Source: a virus. Taken from it: a DNA stretch of 64,000 nt. The translations under genes were made by a program, and so were the position numbers. Each line of letters opens with the position of its first letter. Position 1 is the first letter of the stretch. This document shows, in pieces, positions 12,260 to 51,431 of the stretch. The DNA lies in IMG/VR virus record IMGVR_UViG_3300050821_016647, positions 63,530 to 127,529 of that record; one strand, 5' to 3'. The notes under the pieces are model-generated. The model worked only from the letters and a program-made list of their open reading frames with translations. It searched no databases and had not been told where the DNA came from.

Positions 12260-12538
12260 CCGAGCGATTCGCGAACGGTTCCGCCGCGGACCATGTGGCG
12301 AACAAAATCGCGGCTGCAAAAAACTTGACCAGTCCGCTTGAGTTAGGGCATCTGTCGTCGTCTTCGCCGTCCTGTTCAGATCGTGGGTGCGCTGGCCCCA
12401 CCTGCGGTCCACGGTCTGAACACGGGGGCGAAGGGAAAGCGGTGGGGCCGCCCATGCGTCTGTCTATTTCTCCGACGGGAAGCCGTCGGAAATGAACTCG
12501 TTGTCGCTTCCGATCGTCCCGTTCCAGGGACATCGTCC

Positions 12539-14803
12539 GTGACAGTCTCCAGGCAACAGCGATACACCAAAGCACGACGGTGCCCCATTTGCGGCGGCGC
12601 CGAACAAGACCCGCGAGAGCAGGGTCGGCGGTGCATTGGTTATTTGAGCGACGACGACGAGTGGGCTCGTTGTTCGCGCGAAGAGTGTGCCGGCAGTCTA
12701 GATCTCGAAGAGGGTAGCGGCTGCTACGTACACAAGCTCTACGGGCTCTGCAAGTGCGGCGAGACCCACAACGAAGCGAAGACCTCGACGCAGAACGTCA
12801 TCGAGGCGACCTACGACTACTACGACGAGGGGGGCGTACTGCTCTACCAGGTCGTCCGCAAGGCCGGAAAGAAGTTCCAGCAGCGCCGACCTGACGGAGC
12901 GGGCGGGTGGGTCTGGAAGGTCGGCAAGGAGGTCCGACGCGTCCTCTATCGGCTGCCCGAGCTGCTCGCGGCCCCCCTCGACGAAACGATCGTCATCGTA
13001 GAGGGCGAAAAAGATGTCGCGACCCTTGTTTCTAGGGGGATCGTCGCCACGACGAACGCTCAAGGCGCAGGCAAATGGAACGGTGTTGCAGACCTCGCAC
13101 GCAAGGTCTTCGCTGGGCGCAAGGTCGTCGTCATCGCCGATGCGGATGAGCCGGGACGAAAACACGCAAAAGAGATTCTTCTGAGCCTTACGGGGATCGC
13201 AGAGTCCATCGAGGCCCTCGAGCCTACCAAGGGAAAAGACGTCACCGATCACATTGCGGCCGGAGGAACGTACGACGAGCTCATTCCCCTCGATACTGGG
13301 GAGAAGAAGCCTGATCCTGAGCTCCCGCAGGGAGGTCCGGCTTCAATTCCTCCACCCGATCTGCTGACCAACGGCGCCATTCCTATGGCTCCGTACAAGT
13401 TCAAAGTCGGAGACCATGCGGAACTAGCCGATCGGCTTCTTTTACTACTTCGTAATGATAATCGAATTGCCATTACCGGTGATGAGCAATCTGTATTTGG
13501 GTATGACCCCGATAGAGGATTGTTCACAAGGATTCAGGAAGAGGAACAGTCGAGAATTATTCAGAGCATGTCCGGGTCTCCAGTGAAGGGGAAGTCTCGT
13601 CCGCTCGGCATTCGGTCGGTCGACGTCAACGGAACGCAGAAGCTGTCCTACGATAAATCCGCTGTTCCTGGCTTCTTTTCAGACGCTCCTGCTGGTCTCG
13701 CCTTCCTCAACGGGTTCGTTGGTTTCTCCGAGGCCGGAGCTGTTCTCGTTCCCCACTCTCCCGACAACAGGGCTCGATTTGGTTACTCGTTTCCGTACGC
13801 GCCGGAAGCGCCGTGCCCCATGTGGCTCAACTTCCTCAGCGAGATTTTCCGCGACGATGACGACCGGGATCAGAAAATCGCCGTGCTTCAGGAGCACATT
13901 GGAGCTTCACTTGCGGGGCTCGCGACGACGTTCCAGCGCTGCATTGTCTGCATCGGTGAGGGTGACGAGGGGAAGAGTACGTTCGCCAAGATCGTCGCGT
14001 CAGCCTTCCCGCCAGGCAGTATCGAGGCCATTCCGCCGCAAGAGTGGGGACAGGAGTACCGTCGAGCTCTCCTCGCAGGCAAGCTCCTGAACACGGTCGC
14101 CGAGCTCCCAGAGAGCGACATCATCTCGAGCGAGTCGTTCAAGGCCGTCGTCTCCGGAGACTCCATCACCGGTCGTCCAATCCGACAGGCACCGTTCACG
14201 TTCAAGCCTCGTGCTGGGCATCTCTTCCTCGCGAATCGCCTCCCGGGGACCCCTGACCAGACTCGAGGGTTCTGGCGTCGGTTCATCGTCATCCGGTTCA
14301 ACCGGTCCTTCACGGGGGACGCTGCGCGCGATCCGCTCATCGCCGAGAAGATCGTCGCCGCCGAACAGGGTAGCCTCGTGTCCTGGGCGCTCCAGGGGGC
14401 GGTACGTCTCATCGCCCAGAAGTCGCACACCCTCCCGGCGAGCCATGAGCGCGAGCTGGCCACGTGGCGCAAGAGCGCCGACCAGGTCGCGGCGTTCATC
14501 GAGGACAAGGTCACCTTCGTTCCGACCCGCGGCACCGCCGGGATGGAGGCGTACGCGGCCTACCGTGACTGGGCCGACGCGAACGGGCATCGAGCCATTT
14601 CGAGCTCGAAGTTCTCTGGACGGCTTCGTGAACTCGGAATTCAGGCAAAAAAGACAGAAATTGCCAACGTTTACCCAATTTGTGTGAGCGGTTGTGCTCG
14701 GGTTCCTTGCGACCTGGCGGTCGAGGCTCTTGGGGTCCGGCTGGAGGCAAACGGGATTCGGTTTCCAGCTGTAACGTCAACTATTTCGAGAACTTACAAC
14801 TGA
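12539..14803 (+). CDS. P4/D5-family primase-helicase (Zn finger + TOPRIM + D5_N + SF3 helicase)
   Basis: CPICGG; IVEGEKDV and IADADEPG TOPRIM motifs; GEGDEGKST Walker A; GFWRRF; start taken at GTG 12539 (AGGGA RBS), ORF open from 12383. Confidence 0.9.
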   Translation: MTVSRQQRYTKARRCPICGGAEQDPREQGRRCIGYLSDDDEWARCSREECAGSLDLEEGSGCYVHKLYGLCKCGETHNEAKTSTQNVIEATYDYYDEGGVLLYQVVRKAGKKFQQRRPDGAGGWVWKVGKEVRRVLYRLPELLAAPLDETIVIVEGEKDVATLVSRGIVATTNAQGAGKWNGVADLARKVFAGRKVVVIADADEPGRKHAKEILLSLTGIAESIEALEPTKGKDVTDHIAAGGTYDELIPLDTGEKKPDPELPQGGPASIPPPDLLTNGAIPMAPYKFKVGDHAELADRLLLLLRNDNRIAITGDEQSVFGYDPDRGLFTRIQEEEQSRIIQSMSGSPVKGKSRPLGIRSVDVNGTQKLSYDKSAVPGFFSDAPAGLAFLNGFVGFSEAGAVLVPHSPDNRARFGYSFPYAPEAPCPMWLNFLSEIFRDDDDRDQKIAVLQEHIGASLAGLATTFQRCIVCIGEGDEGKSTFAKIVASAFPPGSIEAIPPQEWGQEYRRALLAGKLLNTVAELPESDIISSESFKAVVSGDSITGRPIRQAPFTFKPRAGHLFLANRLPGTPDQTRGFWRRFIVIRFNRSFTGDAARDPLIAEKIVAAEQGSLVSWALQGAVRLIAQKSHTLPASHERELATWRKSADQVAAFIEDKVTFVPTRGTAGMEAYAAYRDWADANGHRAISSSKFSGRLRELGIQAKKTEIANVYPICVSGCARVPCDLAVEALGVRLEANGIRFPAVTSTISRTYN

Positions 14804-14980
14804 CTGGAGGCAATGGAGGCATTTCCGGCGAAACTCCTATATGCGCGTGTGCGCGCGCACGTGAAATATGGAACTCTTGTACGGATTTGCCTCCAGCGCC
14901 TCCATTTTGCCGCAACTACTCGTTAGAATTATAAGATCATCCTGGAAGCAAGATCTTCGTGGCCTCCAGCCGCCTCCAGG
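14741..14980. repeat. origin-like cluster of direct and inverted (C)TGGAGGC repeats
   Basis: CTGGAGGCAA at 14741 and 14804, ATGGAGGC 14813, TTGCCTCCAG 14887, CGCCTCCA 14897, GCCTCCAG 14962 and 14972. Confidence 0.55.
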
Positions 14981-15071
14981 AACGCACCTAGATCGTACCG
15001 CCCAGACGTAAAACGGTTGCCTTGTAGCAACATCGAAGATACAACGTAGACCTATTTTAGAGGACCACAAC

Positions 15072-15251
15072 GTGGACACATCGATCCGACTTAGGCTCAC
15101 CCAGGAAGAGAAGAATTTATTCACCGAGGCCGCAAAAAGCTCGGGACGGACCTTGAGTAACTGGATCCGTTGGGTAGCCTCCCAGGCAGCGAACAGAACA
15201 CAACCGCCCCCCGCGGCGACGCCTGGCGCTGAGCTGCGCGAGAAGTTCTGA
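15072..15251 (+). CDS. ribbon-helix-helix (CopG/DUF1778-like) regulator; below ORF-track cutoff
   Basis: GTG start with AGGA RBS; MDTSIRLRLTQEEKNLFTEAAKSSGRTLSNWIRWVA. Confidence 0.75.
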   Translation: MDTSIRLRLTQEEKNLFTEAAKSSGRTLSNWIRWVASQAANRTQPPPAATPGAELREKF

Positions 15252-15703
15252 TGGAGCGAGAGCTCGAGTGGCCCGAGGAACCGGGCGTCTATTTTGTGCA
15301 GGCGGGAGACGAGCTTCGGGTCAAGATCGGGAAGGCGAACAACGTTCGTGCTCGATTGACGCAATTGCAGGACGAGGCGAACCGTCTCGGGGTCGGTTTT
15401 AGACTCCAGCTCCTGCATGTCGTTTCAGGTGGATTACGCGAAGAAAAGTCACTTCATAAGAGGTTTGCAGCGCTTCGAGTAAATCCTCGAAACGAGTGGT
15501 TTTGGCTTCGCGATGAGCTGCTCTCGTTCTTGAATCGGATGATCATGGCGCGCGGGACTTTCGATCTGGTCGTTCACGTCGAGTCAATAAACGTTGCTCT
15601 GTCTGGTCACTACGAAGCTGCTTACATCAATATGGCTAGATTGGGTATCTGGACCAGAGCCTATGTCTGGTTCGCCGAACTAGGACACGAAAATTTCTCA
15701 TGA
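15251..15703 (+). CDS. GIY-YIG family (T5orf172/MUG113-like) nuclease
   Basis: GVYFVQ...VKIGKA....RL..LQ...EKSLHKRF..LR....EWF. Confidence 0.8.
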   Translation: MERELEWPEEPGVYFVQAGDELRVKIGKANNVRARLTQLQDEANRLGVGFRLQLLHVVSGGLREEKSLHKRFAALRVNPRNEWFWLRDELLSFLNRMIMARGTFDLVVHVESINVALSGHYEAAYINMARLGIWTRAYVWFAELGHENFS

Positions 15704-16008
15704 CCTACTCCATCATCCCCATCTTCGGCTTCGACTGGCCCCGGTTCCAGATCAGGACCGACGTCGGCCGCACATTCGGCAAGTTCCTCGACCGCGCCGA
15801 GGCCGACACCTACGTCGCCAAGCTCGAAACCCAGCCGCGCGCTGTGCCGGGGCGAGCTCCAGACCTGGAGATCCGCCTCATGGCGGATGAGGCCGCCGAG
15901 ATGTTGCGACGGAGGAGCTTCGACTGGAAGAGGAAGAAGAACCCGGCGCCAGACCCTCCTAGGCCACCGCCATCGAGCTTCAACGACAACGAGGAGATCC
16001 CCTTCTGA
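15700..16008 (+). CDS. hypothetical protein
   Basis: coupled ORF ending in EEIPF. Confidence 0.55.
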   Translation: MTYSIIPIFGFDWPRFQIRTDVGRTFGKFLDRAEADTYVAKLETQPRAVPGRAPDLEIRLMADEAAEMLRRRSFDWKRKKNPAPDPPRPPPSSFNDNEEIPF

Positions 16009-16628
16009 TGAACGCAGCGTCTGTCACAGCAAGCCTCGGTCTCGGAGTTCTCGTCTTCGGTGCCTACGCGCTCGGTTACCTCGCTCGTGCCCGTCATGTG
16101 ACGACCGCAGCCGAGGCTCGAGTGCGCCGACAGAACGCGCGCGGCGAGAAGACGTTCAAGAGGTGGTGTAAGCGTCACGCAGCGCTCGTAGACGCGCTTG
16201 TAGCGAACGAAGATGGGTGTCCGGACCTTCCGATTCTATTCGGCGGCGTTCTGCACCAAGCCACCGATCGGGAGATCCTCAAGCAGCAGTCGAAGAACGC
16301 GAAGGGTTGGCGCGAGCTCTGGGCTGACGAAGCTACGTACGCACCAAAGAAAGGTGTGACGTGCGGAGTGAGTCCGCGACACCGGATCGGAAAGTACCTT
16401 CGTCCGAACCAACCGGCGCCATACGGCTCTTCGAAGCGCGGGAAGCAGGAGCGTCCGTGGGCAAACGGATTCAACGCTTCGTTGCTCGGACTTTTTACCA
16501 GTCCACCGCGAGAGTCGGAGTTACCGAAGCTGGCTAGTCTCGAACCGGAGCCGATCGATCCGGTAGCAGCTTACACGGCACTCAAGAGTAGCGACATTGT
16601 GCCGCTAGTGCCTGAGGAGAAAAAGTGA
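16008..16628 (+). CDS. hypothetical protein with N-terminal TM
   Basis: hydrophobic residues ~8-26. Confidence 0.55.
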   Translation: MNAASVTASLGLGVLVFGAYALGYLARARHVTTAAEARVRRQNARGEKTFKRWCKRHAALVDALVANEDGCPDLPILFGGVLHQATDREILKQQSKNAKGWRELWADEATYAPKKGVTCGVSPRHRIGKYLRPNQPAPYGSSKRGKQERPWANGFNASLLGLFTSPPRESELPKLASLEPEPIDPVAAYTALKSSDIVPLVPEEKK

Positions 16629-17143
16629 CTACTGAATACGCCGCGCTCGCCCTCAAGGCCAGAGAGTTCGCCAAGAGCATGCACGCGAATCAAAAGTACG
16701 GGACCGAGCCCTACGTGGTTCATCTTGAGCTCGTTCGCACCATCTTGTTGGAGTCGCACTACGAGCGTATCTACGAGGTCGCCGCGTGGCTCCACGACAT
16801 GCTCGAAGACACGCACGTGACCGTCGAGCTCATGAATGCGCTGTTCGGAGCGCAGGTCACCACGCTCGTCTGGGCTGTGACCGGGACAGGGGGTAACCGC
16901 AAGGAGCGAAACGAGAGCATCTACGAGAAGCTCGCGATCGTGCCGGCGGCCATCCCGCTCAAGCTCGCCGACCGCATCGCGAACGTCACCTGCGCAAGAG
17001 AGGACGCGAAGACGTCCCTCTTTACGATGTACCGTGATGAGCACGCGGAGTTCGTGAAGCGCCTTGCTCCGTACTCGCTCGGTTGCACGATGTGGGAGCG
17101 GCTCCAATCGGAGATCACCGCTCACGGAAGGATTTCTCTCTGA
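16625..17143 (+). CDS. HD-domain hydrolase, RelA/SpoT (Mesh1-like) family
   Basis: H..QKY..EPYVVH, AAWLHDMLEDT, LKLADRIAN. Confidence 0.85.
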   Translation: MTTEYAALALKAREFAKSMHANQKYGTEPYVVHLELVRTILLESHYERIYEVAAWLHDMLEDTHVTVELMNALFGAQVTTLVWAVTGTGGNRKERNESIYEKLAIVPAAIPLKLADRIANVTCAREDAKTSLFTMYRDEHAEFVKRLAPYSLGCTMWERLQSEITAHGRISL

Positions 17144-17162
17144 TGCCCAGCGGACCACGACG

Positions 17163-17393
17163 ATGAAGACGGTCCATGCCGGCTCCGGCTTCTACGTTCC
17201 CGACGGGACGATGTGCCCGCTTGGGTGTGATATGCCGTTTCACATCGGGACGCGCTATTACAATCTCGAGGGCGGCGGCAAGTCGAGTATTGGGTGCACG
17301 GGGTTCGCTAAGTACCAAGCCGTGACCTACTTGCAGACGGAGCGGCTCATCGCGGCGTTGAACTCGTTCAGAAAACGTGTGGAGAGAAAATGA
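17163..17393 (+). CDS. hypothetical protein
   Basis: start MKTVHAG; coupled to the deaminase. Confidence 0.5.
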   Translation: MKTVHAGSGFYVPDGTMCPLGCDMPFHIGTRYYNLEGGGKSSIGCTGFAKYQAVTYLQTERLIAALNSFRKRVERK

Positions 17394-18064
17394 CCCGATC
17401 CTCGTGGGACACCTACTTCCTCGACATCGCCAAGACCGTCGCCACGCGAGCGACCTGCGACCGCAAGCACGTGGGCGCGGTCATCGTGCGGGATAAGATG
17501 ATTCTCGCGACCGGCTACAACGGCAGCATCCGCGGGATGCCGCACTGTGACGAGGTCGGGCACATGATGGAGGACGGCCATTGCGTTAGAACGATGCACG
17601 CCGAGGCGAACGCGATCGTGCAGGCGGCTCGAGCGGGCGTTGGAATCGCGAGCGGGTCCTCTCTCCTCTCGAACACGAAGACGACCATGTACGTCACGGC
17701 TTCGCCGTGTTGGCCGTGCTTCAAGCTCATCGCGAACGCGGGAATCACGCGCGTCGTTTTCGGCGAGTTCTACCGGGACGAGCGGATTTTCAAGGTCGCC
17801 GAGAAGCTCGGCATCGAGCTCGTCGACGCGAACGCACCGGAGACCAGCTTCTGTTTGACGTGCATGACGCCCATCCAGAAGGGGACTCGGTACTGCGAGC
17901 CACACCTGGCGCTGTCGTTTGCTCAGCATCGAGGACACGACCAGCCGACCGACGACGACCGAGCCGACGCGCACCGGATCTTCGAGAGTCAGGTGCCGTC
18001 CGGCGCCTTGAAAGTCGCAAAGGGCGACGGGACCCTCGAGTGGGTGAAGCCGGAGAAGCTGTGA
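17390..18064 (+). CDS. dCMP deaminase (ComEB-like) with C-terminal Zn-finger extension
   Basis: RATCDRKHVGAVIV, TGYNG, HAEANA, PCWPC. Confidence 0.9.
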   Translation: MTRSSWDTYFLDIAKTVATRATCDRKHVGAVIVRDKMILATGYNGSIRGMPHCDEVGHMMEDGHCVRTMHAEANAIVQAARAGVGIASGSSLLSNTKTTMYVTASPCWPCFKLIANAGITRVVFGEFYRDERIFKVAEKLGIELVDANAPETSFCLTCMTPIQKGTRYCEPHLALSFAQHRGHDQPTDDDRADAHRIFESQVPSGALKVAKGDGTLEWVKPEKL

Positions 18065-18303
18065 GATACACTTGGGACCCCGCCTGGCGCGCGAAACTTT
18101 CCGCGCACGATGTCGCAAAGGTCGCTACTAAGACGCGCGGGCACATCGAGACGGACGGGCAGATGCCGTGGGCATCGAAGCAGGAGGCCCTCCGGGACGT
18201 CGAGGCGTTCGAGCGCGGGGACCCGTGTCCGGAATTCACCGGAGGGCACGTGCACGGCAAGCCGGTACTGAGTCGCTTACACATTTACGAGGAGAAGAAA
18301 TGA
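18061..18303 (+). CDS. hypothetical protein
   Basis: GTG start at 18061 overlapping the stop. Confidence 0.5.
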   Translation: MRYTWDPAWRAKLSAHDVAKVATKTRGHIETDGQMPWASKQEALRDVEAFERGDPCPEFTGGHVHGKPVLSRLHIYEEKK

Positions 18304-18577
18304 GTTGGTTCACTAGGTTCTTCGAGAAGGCGACGCCGAAGCGTAAGTTTTCTGAGCCGAGATTCGTCACGTACCGGTGCCATCGGATTACATGCCCAGC
18401 TTGCGGAAACCGTTCGAGGACGGAGAGACATTGGTTTGCATTGAGGCCATCGGAGAAGGATGGTCTCAATTGACACACCTGCGCTGTCAACAGGCACCTG
18501 AAGGACAGAAGCCGGCTGGAGACGTCGATGCTTACGAGTTGCCGGAGTGGGCTCTCAGCAGGCTAGCAAGAAGATGA
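18300..18577 (+). pseudogene. Zn-finger protein split by an apparent 1-nt frameshift
   Basis: frame 1 reaches CPACG, the other frame continues KPFEDGE...HLRC; one missing G near 18405 joins them. Confidence 0.45.
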
Positions 18578-18795
18578 CCCCCGGCTCCGCTCAGCTCGAG
18601 AATCCGGATGAGGTCTTGCTCGACGTGGTGGGGCTCTGCGCGAAGGTCTGCAAGGACAACGAGCTGACCGGTCGCGTCTACACAAGCGACCTCACGGAGC
18701 TGCGGGACCTCATCAACGACATTCGACGGCACGTGTCGTCGGGCGGCGGGTACAAGTCACTACCGCGGCTCATCAAACCAGGAGAAGACGAATGA
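18574..18795 (+). CDS. hypothetical protein
   Basis: ATGA-coupled. Confidence 0.55.
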   Translation: MTPGSAQLENPDEVLLDVVGLCAKVCKDNELTGRVYTSDLTELRDLINDIRRHVSSGGGYKSLPRLIKPGEDE

Positions 18796-19064
18796 TCTGG
18801 CGCTACCTCAGCTACTGGCTCGCGATGGGCGCGGCGGGAATCGCGCTCAACATCATCTTTGCACTGTTCGGCATCGGAGAGTTGCATCGAGTGCTGAAGA
18901 CCGCCAGCGTGAAGGTGACCGGCGGAAGCGAGCTGACCCGGCTCTCGATCATCGTCAGCGCGATCGTTGGAGTCGTCATTGGCGCGGCGTTCTCAATGTC
19001 GCTTGGACCACTGACGCTGGTCAGGGCCTTTCTCGGGCTCCGGAAGCCGAAAGAGGGCTCGTGA
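18792..19064 (+). CDS. 2-TM membrane protein
   Basis: two hydrophobic segments. Confidence 0.65.
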   Translation: MIWRYLSYWLAMGAAGIALNIIFALFGIGELHRVLKTASVKVTGGSELTRLSIIVSAIVGVVIGAAFSMSLGPLTLVRAFLGLRKPKEGS

Positions 19065-19483
19065 AGGAGACCTGCGACTACTGCGGCAGCAAACTCGTTT
19101 ACCCGTGCGTCGGACTCGGCTGCCCGTTCATTGAAGACTCGGAGTGCAACATCTTCTGCAACGACGAATGCCGAGAGGCGTGGGTTGCTCGGGAGGCGGC
19201 GATGAATCCATACCGCGAACAGATCGAGCAGCTCGCTCGCGACGCGGCCATCGTGAAGCGGGAGTACGACGCGTCGCAGGTCGCGCACGAGGCGATGAAG
19301 AGCGCCGAGCGGAGCGTGCTCATGGCGGTATATGCTCTAGTCGGTCCTGAGTACGTACCGACGTCGATACCTCTCGGCAGCACGTTGCGAAAGGAACTAG
19401 AGGACGTGGTCGTATGTCTCCGCGCGAAAGGGATCAGTAAGCACGCAGAGATGGTCGCGGCCGTCGTGGTGCTGTTGCCATGA
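19061..19483 (+). CDS. hypothetical protein with N-terminal Cys cluster
   Basis: CDYC...C...C...C..FC..EC. Confidence 0.55.
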   Translation: MKETCDYCGSKLVYPCVGLGCPFIEDSECNIFCNDECREAWVAREAAMNPYREQIEQLARDAAIVKREYDASQVAHEAMKSAERSVLMAVYALVGPEYVPTSIPLGSTLRKELEDVVVCLRAKGISKHAEMVAAVVVLLP

Positions 19484-19815
19484 CCCCCTACCGACAGACC
19501 ATTACTCTTGATGCGATTCCTCGTCGGCCCACGCGTGAAGAGACGATGAAGAAGTTCAACCGCGGGATGATCAATGGTCCGCCGTGGCGAAGATGGGACG
19601 CGTTGGCAGCAGCCAATCAAGGGCTGCTGGTCGTGCTCCTATGTCTCATGGGGCCGCATCCATACGGTGGATGGATCGACATCCCTTGCGGTATCCTCGG
19701 TCTCGTGTTCTCGATCTTTGCTGCATTCCGATACTGGCGTGAGGCGCCATACCGGCGACTCGTAGAAGAGGCTGAGGCGGAGCTCAAGATGTTGACTGAG
19801 AACGAACATGGGTGA
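19480..19815 (+). CDS. 2-TM membrane protein
   Basis: two hydrophobic segments. Confidence 0.6.
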   Translation: MTPYRQTITLDAIPRRPTREETMKKFNRGMINGPPWRRWDALAAANQGLLVVLLCLMGPHPYGGWIDIPCGILGLVFSIFAAFRYWREAPYRRLVEEAEAELKMLTENEHG

Positions 19816-20053
19816 GGCGAAGCGGAAACGAGAGCTGGCCAAACGCGCGGAAACGGAGCGAGCTGCGGAGGAGCTACGTGTAGCCATCGAGCCTCCGGCG
19901 AAACCGCTCAACCGCAAGCGTGACCGAGAGATGGCCGCCGCCGGGGTCTTCGACAAGTACAACTGCGACCTCATGCCGAAGGGGACCGTGATGAAGTCCA
20001 ACGACATCGTGCACGTCGACGGTGGCGTGCATTTCTATACGGACAAGAAATGA
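19808..20053 (+). CDS. hypothetical protein
   Basis: common MGEAKRKR N-terminus. Confidence 0.55.
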   Translation: MGEAKRKRELAKRAETERAAEELRVAIEPPAKPLNRKRDREMAAAGVFDKYNCDLMPKGTVMKSNDIVHVDGGVHFYTDKK

Positions 20054-20232
20054 GCTGCTGCATTGCGTGCAGTGTTGCGCTCGAAAGACCGAACAACGAG
20101 ATCGCCGCCGTTGCGGTACTTGCTTATGGGTGGCGTTCCAAGAAAACCGTCGAAGAGATTTGTCGTGACCTGTGCGAGCGGCACGAGGCGATGTTCAAGC
20201 GCGGGTATGTCGCGGCGGAGAAGGTAAAATGA
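20050..20232 (+). CDS. hypothetical protein (CxxC...CxxH)
   Basis: coupled ORF. Confidence 0.55.
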   Translation: MSCCIACSVALERPNNEIAAVAVLAYGWRSKKTVEEICRDLCERHEAMFKRGYVAAEKVK

Positions 20233-20564
20233 AAACCATACACTTCATCGTCAACGGGGAGGATATCAAGGTCCGTGTCGAGGATGAGCTGCCGCTCGAG
20301 TGGGCGACGCGGCGCGCACTGCGACTCAGCTACAACACGAGTCGGCCGCCTCAGGATTGGGAGCTACGTCACGAATCCGGGCAGCTCGTCGACGACGGGA
20401 TTTGTTGCGAGCGGATACCTGAGCACGGTCATTTGTTTTTGACGCTGCGGGTCAGTGCTGGAGGTAACCGGCGATACATCTTTTCGTCACTGCGTGCAGA
20501 CTGGTCGCTAGGTAACCGGCGATACATCTTTCCGTCGCTGCGTGCAGACTGGTCGCTGCGGTGA
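20229..20564 (+). CDS. DUF2604 / type II BilA-like ubiquitin-fold protein with C-terminal extension
   Basis: IVNGE..V....LPL.....AL..S.NT.RPP.DWELR.ESGQLVD...LFLTLRVSAGG; ATGA-coupled start at 20229. Confidence 0.75.
   Translation: MKTIHFIVNGEDIKVRVEDELPLEWATRRALRLSYNTSRPPQDWELRHESGQLVDDGICCERIPEHGHLFLTLRVSAGGNRRYIFSSLRADWSLGNRRYIFPSLRADWSLR
20463..20558 (+). repeat. 2 x 48 bp tandem repeat encoding GNRRYIF(S/P)SLRADWSL
   Basis: copies 20463-20510 and 20511-20558, three mismatches. Confidence 0.95.
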
Positions 20565-20701
20565 AACGCGCCGACCCCATGCTGCTGATGTGCAAGCTCC
20601 AAGGCAACGGCGGGCGGCCCATGAAGCGCCGGACGATGAAGAAGCGTCTGAGCCGCGTCCTCGCAGAGGTGAGGCGGCGGTTCTTGCGGAGAAGGGCCTG
20701 A
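20561..20701 (+). CDS. small basic protein (46 aa)
   Basis: GTGA overlap; MKRADPMLLMCKLQGNGGRPMKRR... Confidence 0.35.
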   Translation: MKRADPMLLMCKLQGNGGRPMKRRTMKKRLSRVLAEVRRRFLRRRA

Positions 20702-20739
20702 TGTTCCCCATCGAGCCGTTTCCCTGGTAGGCTTCAAGG

Positions 20740-21180
20740 GTGGCAGACCCCACCCGTCGTGTGCAGCAGCTCCTGGCCCTTGCGACGGACCCAGCGGCGT
20801 CAGAGGAGGAAGCCCGCACCGCGGCGCTTCAAGCTGCCCGCAGCATCCGAGCGCACGGTCTCCACGTGACATCGGCCGAGGAGGAGTGGGAGGCCCAGCA
20901 GCAGGTGTCCTGCTACCCTTCCCGGGCGCCATCGCACCCCTACGGTACCGCTGTGACGCCCCAGAGCCGTCAGATGGGCGCCGGGGCGCCGCGCATGCAT
21001 CCTAGGCCCACGCCGCAGTCACGCGCCATGTCGGTGCCCAGAGACGAGACCGGCTACGGTATCGAGCCGATGCGCGGCGGTGCGCATGTGGTGGACTGGG
21101 ACTTCAAGGACGACGTGTCCGTGGAGAAGCCAGAGCAAGCGTTCTCGCCTGCGCTCCTGTCGCTCTTGAGGCGTCGATAG
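20740..21180 (+). CDS. DUF2786-like protein
   Basis: RVQQLLALATDP.ASEEEARTAAL.A...I..HGL; TAGGCT -10 box 6 nt upstream (leaderless). Confidence 0.6.
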   Translation: MADPTRRVQQLLALATDPAASEEEARTAALQAARSIRAHGLHVTSAEEEWEAQQQVSCYPSRAPSHPYGTAVTPQSRQMGAGAPRMHPRPTPQSRAMSVPRDETGYGIEPMRGGAHVVDWDFKDDVSVEKPEQAFSPALLSLLRRR

Positions 21181-21181
21181 G

Positions 21182-21373
21182 ATGCTCACGCCGAAGGCGC
21201 CGAAAACGACAGACGGTCTTCTGCGCGCGGTGAGCGCCTGGTTCTTCGAGACGGAGCTCGAGCTCAAGAAGAAGACGCTCGACTTCAAAGACCTGAGCGA
21301 AGCTGAGGTCCACCTCTATCGCGAGGCGAAGAAGTGGAGCGAGATGATGCGGGTCTGGTCGGGACGAGGCTGA
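21182..21373 (+). CDS. hypothetical protein
   Basis: 63 aa ORF, coding-like codon bias. Confidence 0.55.
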   Translation: MLTPKAPKTTDGLLRAVSAWFFETELELKKKTLDFKDLSEAEVHLYREAKKWSEMMRVWSGRG

Positions 21374-21378
21374 CGCGA

Positions 21379-21406
21379 TTGACGTACTGCGCGCGCGGCG
21401 TATCCT
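21379..21406 (+). promoter_or_regulatory. sigma70-like promoter, leaderless transcript
   Basis: TTGACG-16 nt-TATCCT-7 nt-ATG(21414). Confidence 0.7.
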
Positions 21407-21413
21407 CGCCGCC

Positions 21414-22115
21414 ATGCTCCGCCAGACACTCGCGTTCCTCGTCGTTCTGTTCCTCGTCGCCTGTCCTTCGCCAACGTGCCCTCCTGCGCCCGATGCGGCG
21501 CCAGTTCCCGCCCCAGAAGCGGCAGCCGAGGTCGCCCCCGCGGTTTCGAGCGGCACGAGCGTCATCGTCAAGAACCCGGGCCCCGACGCCGTGAGCGTCG
21601 CGGTCGCCTTCGGGAGCGACTCGCAGGTGACGGGCTTCTTCTTCTGCAACCCGACCGGAGCGCTCACGTGCTCGTTCAAGTTGGACGGTAAGGCGTCGCG
21701 CGAGCTCCCCCTCGCGGGCGGCTACCTCAACGCCACGTTCGTGTTCAACACGTCGGTCGGGTGCGGCTCGACGAAGGCCGAGATCAACGTGAACAACCCG
21801 CAGTGGTACAACACGGTCGACATCAGCCTCGTCGACGGGTTCTCCACGCCGCTGACTCTCGTCTACAAGGATCCCTCGGGCAGTCACACGTTCTCGGTGT
21901 CCGGCAAGCTCGGTAACGAGCGAGCTCCGGCGGTCTTTCCCCTCGGCTGTGACACGTGCGTCGCGAGGACCAAGTCCGCGTGCGGGATGTCGCCGGGCAA
22001 GGACGGATGCAAGGCAGGGACGCAGTTCGCGCCGGTGCCACCCTGCCAGTTCCAGGGGAGCACGATGAGTGGTCGCGCGACGACCGTCGAGATCGTCCTC
22101 GGTGCGCCGGCCTGA
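21414..22115 (+). CDS. thaumatin-like (PR-5) lipoprotein
   Basis: signal peptide with lipobox LVAC; TKAEI...YNTVDISLVDGFSTPL matches thaumatin D-I/V-S-L-V-D-G-F; Cys-rich. Confidence 0.65.
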   Translation: MLRQTLAFLVVLFLVACPSPTCPPAPDAAPVPAPEAAAEVAPAVSSGTSVIVKNPGPDAVSVAVAFGSDSQVTGFFFCNPTGALTCSFKLDGKASRELPLAGGYLNATFVFNTSVGCGSTKAEINVNNPQWYNTVDISLVDGFSTPLTLVYKDPSGSHTFSVSGKLGNERAPAVFPLGCDTCVARTKSACGMSPGKDGCKAGTQFAPVPPCQFQGSTMSGRATTVEIVLGAPA

Positions 22116-22675: not shown

Positions 22676-23209
22676 TCACGCGTCGGCCTCTTCTTCCTCC
22701 TCTTCCTCCTCCTCTTCTTCTTCTTCCTCTTCTTCCTCGTCTCCACCGCCGAGGTCGACGTCGTAGCGGTCTTCGACCGATTTCTTGTCGAGCACGAGTG
22801 GGTACTGGTCGAATTCGCCCCAGCCGTAGTTGCTGGCGTAGACCTCGTAGGCCCACGCGCGCTCCATGGGGTCGTCGCTCATGAACGCGGCCTTGACCTC
22901 GCTGGGCTTCTGGCCCGACGTCTGGGCGGCGGATTTCAAGCTCCCCCAGGTCGGGACGCCTCGGTCGAGAGGGACGCGGTAGATGGTCCAGCGTGCCTCC
23001 TTGTCGTCGAAGTCGACGTCGTCCGGTGGCACCTCGACGTACTCGAGCTCGTAACCGTCGCTGCGGCCCGTGCTGGCTTCCTGCGGTGACTTGAGCACCT
23101 GGCCGCCGTCGTACTCGGGGAAGTTGACGTCGCCGACGGTACCGATGATTTCGTCGCCGAACTTGTTCTTCTTGGGCTCGCGGGTGCGGCGGGTGTGTGC
23201 TCTGGGCAT
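22676..23209 (-). CDS. acidic protein with poly-Glu tail
   Basis: 177 aa; ends GGGD then ~20 Glu; GGAGG RBS. Confidence 0.7.
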   Translation of the reverse strand: MPRAHTRRTREPKKNKFGDEIIGTVGDVNFPEYDGGQVLKSPQEASTGRSDGYELEYVEVPPDDVDFDDKEARWTIYRVPLDRGVPTWGSLKSAAQTSGQKPSEVKAAFMSDDPMERAWAYEVYASNYGWGEFDQYPLVLDKKSVEDRYDVDLGGGDEEEEEEEEEEEEEEEEEADA

Positions 23210-51261: not shown

Positions 51262-51336
51262 GGACCCACCGGACCGATTCGAACGGCCGACCTCCGGCTC
51301 CGCATGCCGACGCTCTACCACTGAGCTACGAGGGTC
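51262..51336 (-). tRNA. trnR: tRNA-Arg-like, anticodon GCG, imperfect acceptor stem, no encoded CCA
   Basis: D arm GCTC-AGTGGTA-GAGC, anticodon arm TCGGC-ATGCGGA-GCCGG, T arm GGCCG-TTCGAAT-CGGTC. Confidence 0.7.
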
Positions 51337-51356
51337 AAAATGAAAAGCAAGATGTC

Positions 51357-51431
51357 GGACCCACCGGACCGATTCGAACGGCCGACCTCCGGCTCCGTAT
51401 GCCGACGCTCTACCGCTGAGCTACGAGGGTC
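51357..51431 (-). tRNA. trnR: tRNA-Arg-like, anticodon ACG, imperfect acceptor stem, no encoded CCA
   Basis: 73 of 75 nt identical to the copy at 51262; anticodon loop ATACGGA. Confidence 0.7.

Follow-up and report, generated by a model that had tools for sequence, protein, structure and literature searches.

A solitary BilA-type ubiquitin-like protein in a large soil virus, a candidate decoy against bacterial Bil defence

A virus with a genome of 127,529 bp (IMG/VR record IMGVR_UViG_3300050821_016647) encodes a ubiquitin-like protein (Ubl) that is a member of the Type II BilA family, with a beta-grasp fold and an intact C-terminal GG. The gene lies in the second half of that record (positions 63,530-127,529), a stretch of 64,000 nucleotides hereafter called the window. 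The Ubl is encoded alone. Since the virus has no E1, E2 or Ubl-type peptidase, the protein could act only through host enzymes, and as its activation tail is kept with no viral enzyme to use it, the simplest reading is that it engages a host Type II Bil system. Most likely the Ubl feeds into or blocks this machinery; that it does so as an anti-Bil decoy or competitor is proposed tentatively, at somewhat under an even chance. The Ubl is a new member of a known protein family; what the literature searched does not describe is its solitary viral setting and its implied role.

Family membership and fold

Pfam family DUF2604 (PF10790) matches residues 3-57 of the Ubl with 37.9 bits (E 2.4e-9) against a cut-off of 25. 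A six-frame search of the genome gave 38.4 bits for the Ubl, which is the sole DUF2604 match in it. PADLOC, PHROGs and NCBIfam returned no match for the protein. When compared with all PDB sequences by phmmer, only bacterial Ubls were returned: the top matches were Ensifer aridi BilA (8TYX and 8TYZ, E about 5e-6), next Methylobacterium BilA (8U38) and then a multi-ubiquitin protein (9D5B).

The AF2 model, based on 50 homologues, is a beta-grasp with pLDDT >95 over residues 1-75, comprising strands at residues 2-8, 11-17, 44-47 and 68-73 and a helix at 23-33. In Foldseek searches of the PDB 8tyx_A and 8tyz_B took ranks 1 and 2 (E 1.5e-7, TM 0.85, rmsd about 2 A), and the BilA chains were followed by ubiquitin and NEDD8. 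The residues beyond the GG, which form a C-terminal cap (80-111), have a pLDDT of 52-62 and are predicted to be disordered. The original prediction had called the product DUF2604/BilA-like on the strength of a residue pattern in an open reading frame. Both the frame and the pattern are present exactly, Pfam, PDB and fold comparisons show that the match is not due to chance, and the beta-grasp fold on which the idea depended was found with confidence.

G78 and G79 are invariant across the 50 homologues, and L69, L71, L73, V75 and A77 are common to operon-encoded BilAs. Every family-invariant residue is kept, including the motif L-x-L-[RK]-V-x-A-G-G. With Type II BilA of Ensifer aridi (8TYX/8TYZ) the viral protein shares DUF2604, the beta-grasp fold and the conserved C-terminal glycine; the L-x-L-[RK]-V-G-A-G that precedes this glycine in Type II BilA and the presence of residues past the reactive Gly are shared as well. 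The differences are several. The viral gene comes without bilB, bilC or bilD, and its cap is 32 aa long (0-62 aa in viral relatives), whereas operon BilAs have nine residues or fewer. Viral copies are bare domains with 1-12 residues ahead of the first strand, whereas many operon BilAs have N-terminal extensions or extra domains. The viral clade also differs by the substitutions W25, R28 and T72 and by a shorter loop before the last strand.

Gene structure and neighbourhood

The features of the Ubl gene and of the co-directional block around it are collected in Table 1. The gene is probably translationally coupled to an upstream 60-aa ORF within this plus strand block, because its ATG overlaps the TGA stop of that ORF (20230-20232), with GGAGAAGG ahead. 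A promoter and terminator scan around the gene found nothing that exceeds the shuffled background. The 48-bp unit whose duplication created the cap has no other occurrence in the genome, as judged by a whole-genome mismatch search.

Table 1. Features of the Ubl gene and its block (window positions)
Feature	Position	Strand	Details or basis
Co-directional block with Ubl	12383-22115	+	ORF list, Pfam/NCBIfam scans, synteny with contigs L003 and L030
D5-type primase-helicase	12383-14803	+	Ubl block
GIY-YIG/T5orf172	15251-15703	+	Ubl block
SpoT-type HD hydrolase domain	16625-17143	+	Pfam HD_4; NCBIfam spoT_relA N-terminal region
dCMP deaminase	17390-18064	+	Ubl block
Small ORFs without assigned function	between dCMP deaminase and Ubl	+	Ubl block
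Shine-Dalgarno-like GGAGAAGG	20217-20224	+	4 nt ahead of Ubl ATG; read from sequence
Ubl ORF	20229-20564	+	111 aa + stop codon; BilA-like Ubl precursor (P0001); translation
Beta-grasp Ubl domain, residues 1-79	20229-20465	+	ends in invariant G78-G79 after L-x-L-R-V-S-A
48-bp tandem duplication creating cap	20462-20557		2.0 copies, 95% matches (Tandem Repeats Finder)
C-terminal cap, residues 80-111	20466-20561	+	two 16-aa units NRRYIF[SP]SLRADWSL[GR]; unconserved in relatives
DUF2786 protein	20740-21180	+	3' of Ubl, same block
Conserved 233-aa protein	21414-22115	+	3' of Ubl, same block

The gene content of the block fits an early or middle operon. The original prediction had placed the Ubl in an early/middle accessory operon; the replication and nucleotide genes around it agree with this, and the timing itself is inferred. 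Many ORFs of the virus have no family match.

Three other features of the window were recorded. The stand-alone SpoT/RelA-type HD domain just 5' of the dCMP deaminase could be a virus-encoded enzyme that hydrolyses (p)ppGpp or an alarmone. A 177-aa protein (22676-23209, minus strand) ends in about 17 glutamates, for which a CCT/TCT repeat at 22687-22742 codes, and is conserved in L030. Two adjoining tRNA-Arg genes with the anticodons GCG and ACG lie at 51262-51430 (minus strand).

Absence of partner genes from the complete genome

CheckV rates the virus genome as 100% complete, in the class of direct terminal repeats. An exact 90-bp direct terminal repeat (G000:C1:1-90 and 127440-127529) fits either a complete terminally redundant genome or the overlap of a circular assembly. 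Six-frame profile searches of the whole genome detected no ThiF E1, no Metal_CEHH, none of Prok-E2_A, Prok-E2_B, Prok-E2_D and UQ_con, and no OTU or C48 peptidase. HMMs of BilB, BilD and JAB built from bacterial operons, together with tblastn, likewise gave no match in the genome. Prok-JAB produced only a 12-bit echo below threshold, located inside a RadC-type protein.

This RadC-type protein (357 aa; L001:1363-2436, minus strand, equal to G000:C1:58182-59255) is the only JAB-fold gene product of the genome. Its C-terminal domain matches PF04002 with 102 bits and has an intact JAMM-type motif (HNHPS...SDSD); the N-terminal part of about 225 aa has no family match. The gene belongs to a different module, 25 kb away from the Ubl and outside the window, whose first position it precedes by 4.3 kb. 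JABs of the RadC clade have been argued to be without the groove for the ubiquitin tail and to act probably on nucleic acids (Iyer et al. 2017, PMC5512222). For this reason, and also because RadC is absent in a second Ubl-bearing virus, the protein was set aside as a candidate Ubl peptidase.

An operon with a CEHH E2, a JAB DUB and a multidomain E1, which defines a Type II BilABCD system, was accordingly not found in the virus. The original prediction had described a stand-alone Ubl with no E1, E2 or JAB, and no peptidase partner, in the window. The solitary status and the absence of E1 and E2 hold for the window and for the complete genome, so that no conjugating enzymes were detected elsewhere on the virus. 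The JAB part holds for the window and, genome-wide, for Prok-JAB; as to peptidases in general the claim stands for Prok-JAB, OTU and C48 and fails insofar as the genome contains the RadC-type JAB just outside the window.

As a separate observation, the first half of the genome has a 355-aa ORF with a transglutaminase-core (papain-like) domain (L040, equal to G000:C1:47604-50909; match at C1:49104-49409, minus strand).

Bacterial loci with the same domain

A pattern scan of species genomes with a 16-sequence alignment yielded 16 bacterial loci from Acidobacteriota, Gallionella, Sulfuricaulis, Burkholderiales, Gemmatimonadaceae and others. According to operon profiles a CEHH E2 lies directly 3' of the Ubl in 16/16 loci, yet one of them (L021) is listed without CEHH. 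An E1 was detected in 14 of the 16, fragments included, and a JAB in 12. Of the two loci without a detected E1, one lies at the end of its contig, which stops right behind the E2; for the other, the following frame was left unscored. In Granulicella paludicola, for example, a Metal_CEHH protein comes immediately after the DUF2604 gene, a ThiF-containing E1 of 487 aa is next, and a Prok-JAB is nearby. The Ubl frame stops within a few residues of the GG in the 15 loci with an intact Ubl and next gene. Because the bacterial loci pair the Ubl with a CEHH E2, which matches the published Type II operon, DUF2604 is identified as the Ubl of Type II BilABCD (CEHH/6C) operons (Chambers et al., bioRxiv 10.1101/2023.09.26.559546). 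Systems of this kind are rare in the sample examined: a match was found in 8/301 Terriglobia genomes, at 35-43% identity.

Two deviating arrangements were seen among the bacterial loci. In L021 (7803-8553) a BilA-like frame runs about 70 aa beyond the GG and only a JAB lies nearby, with no CEHH or E1; this is probably a degraded Bil operon. In L014-L029 (e.g. L026:7773-13179) the order is Ubl, CEHH E2, E1, and after the E1 come a 295-aa protein, an AAA_15 (OLD/AbiEii-like) ATPase and a JAB, convergent on the opposite strand. This differs from the strict bilA-bilB-bilC-bilD order of Type II Bil and may represent a variant architecture.

The biochemistry of these systems bears directly on the viral protein. 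BilC cuts BilA at a universally conserved glycine, past which operon BilAs have up to nine residues, and it strips C-terminal extensions off BilA, a GFP fusion included; BilA with even one extra residue occupies the adenylation site of the E1, blocks ATP and cannot be adenylated (Chambers et al., bioRxiv 10.1101/2023.09.26.559546).

Viral relatives, recurrence and selection

An exhaustive HMMER search found 193 cluster representatives at E <=0.001, most of which end in ...LFL[TS]L[RK]VGAGG followed by nothing or a few residues. The nearest relatives (P0002-P0008) are 52-85% identical to the Ubl and have 36 invariant positions in common, including G78-G79; past the GG they have nothing or unrelated tails, 14-59 aa long. 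In all of the closest relatives with fetched DNA context (L003, L005-L008, L030-L032) the Ubl is solitary, among small ORFs, on virus-like contigs; around the Ubl in L003, L005 and L006 the check for E1 and E2 covered 8-10 kb per side. The contigs of L005, L006 and L007 are 13-123 kb long. L003 (57 kb) and L030 are syntenic with this virus and have the dCMP deaminase, the DUF2786 gene and the 233-aa protein in common with it. Outside this virus group the Ubl is the only gene shared by the window and its relatives (within 6 kb per side), and no small partner gene conserved beside the Ubl was found among the compared contigs. Because it is the sole gene common to otherwise different viral contigs, the Ubl appears to behave as a mobile accessory gene, solitary in at least four viral lineages or contig types.

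Some of these relatives have candidate counter-defence genes near the Ubl. A Pfam match to Tad5 lies a few genes 5' of it in both L003 (5304-5714) and L030 (625-1041), while no Tad5 match was found among the window ORFs scanned. In L031 and L032 genes for NADAR and dCTP deaminase are close by, and in L008 there is a weak AcrVA2-like Pfam match. In L003 the gene next to the Ubl is a MarR regulator.

Another, unrelated virus in IMG/VR, 202.5 kb long and rated 94% complete, encodes a Ubl copy that is 41% identical and ends exactly at the GG. No ThiF, CEHH or RadC was found in it. With P0025 this copy shares 98.8% identity; its place in the tree is outside the clade that holds the window's Ubl. 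In the maximum-likelihood tree of 167 domains, 8 viral-context and 18 operon-context rows are split with one change (SH-aLRT 88), a separation that is suggestive only, the alignment being just 91 columns long. A tblastn search of 50,697 GenBank phage records detected no homologue of the Ubl, and an IMG/VR scan with the alignment of close relatives gave no confirmed relative beyond the window's own record. The sequencing runs with this DNA are soil metagenomes, with no RNA run listed among them.

Over codons 1-79 the closest pairs have a dN/dS of 0.14-0.18 (dS 0.7-1.1), and all other pairs have values <=0.39. The Ubl domain is under purifying selection, and the gene appears to be functional rather than decaying. 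The sequence past the GG is a different matter: L030 has a TAG stop directly after it, while in L003 a TTG occupies that codon and the frame reads on. In nine viral copies the tails past the GG measure 0, 0, 0, 14, 20, 20, 32, 40 and 59 aa. The cap thus looks accidental, and loss of the stop codon after the GG is evidently tolerated. Two situations would fit such tolerance: a host peptidase that reliably trims at the GG, or a function that depends on binding only.

Possible function and its alternatives

The proposed course of events is as follows. In a host with a Type II BilABCD (CEHH/6C) system the Ubl would be made from the block of replication and nucleotide-metabolism genes, probably early or in the middle of infection. 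It would compete with host BilA for the BilC peptidase, the adenylation site of the E1 (BilD) and the E2 (BilB). While capped it could occupy BilD unreactively, a step suggested by the published finding that uncleaved BilA binds the E1 and blocks ATP; after trimming by BilC it could take BilA's place in loading, as a bare "blank" tag. Either way less host Ubl would be conjugated to virion proteins. The tail fibre is, to our knowledge, the only known Bil target. Both the binding to host enzymes and the anti-defence effect are inferred here.

Several observations are consistent with an anti-Bil decoy. The GG and the E1-recognition tail are conserved, the domain is under purifying selection, it recurs alone in several lineages, and the Tad5, NADAR and weak AcrVA2-like matches lie near the Ubl of relatives. 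The gene has the properties of the anti-defence class, being virus-encoded, solitary, mobile between viral backgrounds and located in an accessory, putatively early region. A co-fold of Ubl residues 1-79 with a Terriglobia BilD as a stand-in gave a weak score of 0.39 (runs 0.39, 0.47 and 0.00; best control 0.01), to be read against a calibration in which 58 of 80 solved complexes passed the mark, as did 2 of 110 mismatches, and in which scores <=0.60 were seen in only 7 of those 80 solved complexes but in both passing mismatches. In this co-fold the runs agree in at least 0% of contacts and the partner has a pLDDT >=70; the pass may reflect a solved complex of the same kind (8TYZ).

Other points count against a decoy. 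A viral Ubl conjugated in place of BilA would not obviously be harmless. Among close relatives, copies with a free GG coexist with others whose caps measure 12-62 aa, and neither a pure blocker nor a pure substrate would fit all of them without host BilC. The low frequency of matches among the Terriglobia genomes, the identity of these matches and the weak co-fold score also weigh against it.

The main rival explanation is pro-viral hijacking, in which host E1 and E2 enzymes (Bil-type or other) would attach the viral Ubl to proteins of the host or of the virus, perhaps re-targeting or inactivating host factors, with an aim other than blunting Bil. The ubiquitin genes found in some eukaryotic viruses would be comparable. 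The intact tail, the purifying selection and the lack of a viral E1 or E2 speak for it too, as do the three viral copies that end at a ready-to-use GG. It is nevertheless unlikely: host enzymes that accept the Ubl would be needed, and all such enzymes known so far are part of a rare defence system; a benefit that hinges on a host defence operon is less parsimonious than counter-defence; and no conserved viral partner or target gene accompanies the Ubl. A non-covalent role unrelated to Bil is less probable again. Here the beta-grasp would be a module for binding or a small regulator, with its C-terminal motif kept for fold or binding, so that the long unrelated caps tolerated in 6 of the 9 viral copies would do no harm if a free C-terminus is not needed; the MarR regulator adjoining the Ubl in L003 could also be taken this way. 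However, no copy departs from the GG and the entire activation tail agrees with that of operon BilAs, conservation of a kind that typically marks recognition by an E1 or peptidase, and all homologues whose biology is known serve as tags that are conjugated.

There is a slim chance that the virus has its own unrecognised partners, such as a RadC-type JAB that trims the cap or strips conjugates, plus some ligase. This would draw on the intact JAMM-type motif and PF04002 score of that protein and on the many viral ORFs without a family match, but it runs against the argued lack of a ubiquitin-tail groove in the clade (PMC5512222), the distant location of the gene in another module, the second Ubl-bearing virus without RadC and the absence from the genome of any adenylating enzyme among the families searched. 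That the gene is a remnant in decay or a neutral passenger, taken up from a host or from a Bil operon borne by a virus, is disfavoured because dN/dS is 0.14-0.18 over a dS of about 0.7-1.1; all invariant residues are kept, and the gene is solitary in at least four viral backgrounds. The stop after the GG was lost in several copies, giving read-through tails, and L021 shows that a bacterial operon can be found degraded, but even so a remnant is highly improbable. Superinfection exclusion, with the viral Ubl working together with host Bil enzymes against competing viruses, is no more probable. Mobile elements often carry defence parts and the Ubl sequence is compatible with BilD and BilC recognition, but a Bil-positive host has its own BilA, and the viral copies are bare, with no specificity domain added.

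The anti-Bil decoy thus remains the preferred, tentative reading for this virus. Its extension to the family, namely that orphan BilA-type Ubls are the first viral anti-Bil counter-defence family, that they are uncapped by BilC and then occupy BilD/BilB or act as harmless blank tags, and that several large soil-virus lineages acquired them independently, is offered slightly more guardedly.

Comparison with known systems and significance

Some eukaryotic viruses carry ubiquitin genes, for example baculovirus v-ubi, and rely on host E1 and E2. The virus described here is similar in bearing the tag of the host system and not its enzymes. It differs in the domain of life and in the Ubl family, and in that the bacterial conjugation system is a dedicated antiviral defence. 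Phages are also known to counter defence by mimicry or competition, by means of nucleotide sponges (Tad, Acb) and DNA mimics. With these the Ubl shares the small, solitary, mobile gene in a putatively early region and the proposed competition for a defence component, but it would mimic a protein tag instead of binding a signal or imitating DNA. Another phage-encoded beta-grasp protein is the lambda-type tail assembly Ubl (protein I), which Iyer, Burroughs and Aravind reportedly described in 2006 as adjoining a JAB-NlpC protein. Protein I is part of a tail module, has its own JAB adjacent and is not DUF2604, whereas the viral Ubl lies among replication genes with no adjacent peptidase.

The literature search found no paper naming DUF2604, and the Bil literature searched makes no mention of phage-encoded Ubls. 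In anti-defence surveys from 2025-2026, Bil and ubiquitin do not come up and no anti-Bil protein is listed. The original statement that no anti-Bil Ubl mimic has been described therefore agrees with the literature searched.

Bil systems are the bacterial counterpart of antiviral tagging by ISG15 and ubiquitin. The solitary, conserved viral copy of a tag provides a concrete hypothesis that can be tested cheaply. The viral Ubl would also be a ready probe for Type II Bil, since nature supplies it as a competitor in capped and uncapped forms. If the proposed role is true, it would be a prokaryotic parallel to the subversion of ubiquitin and ISG15 tagging by eukaryotic viruses, and its confirmation would extend viral tag mimicry from eukaryotes to bacteria.
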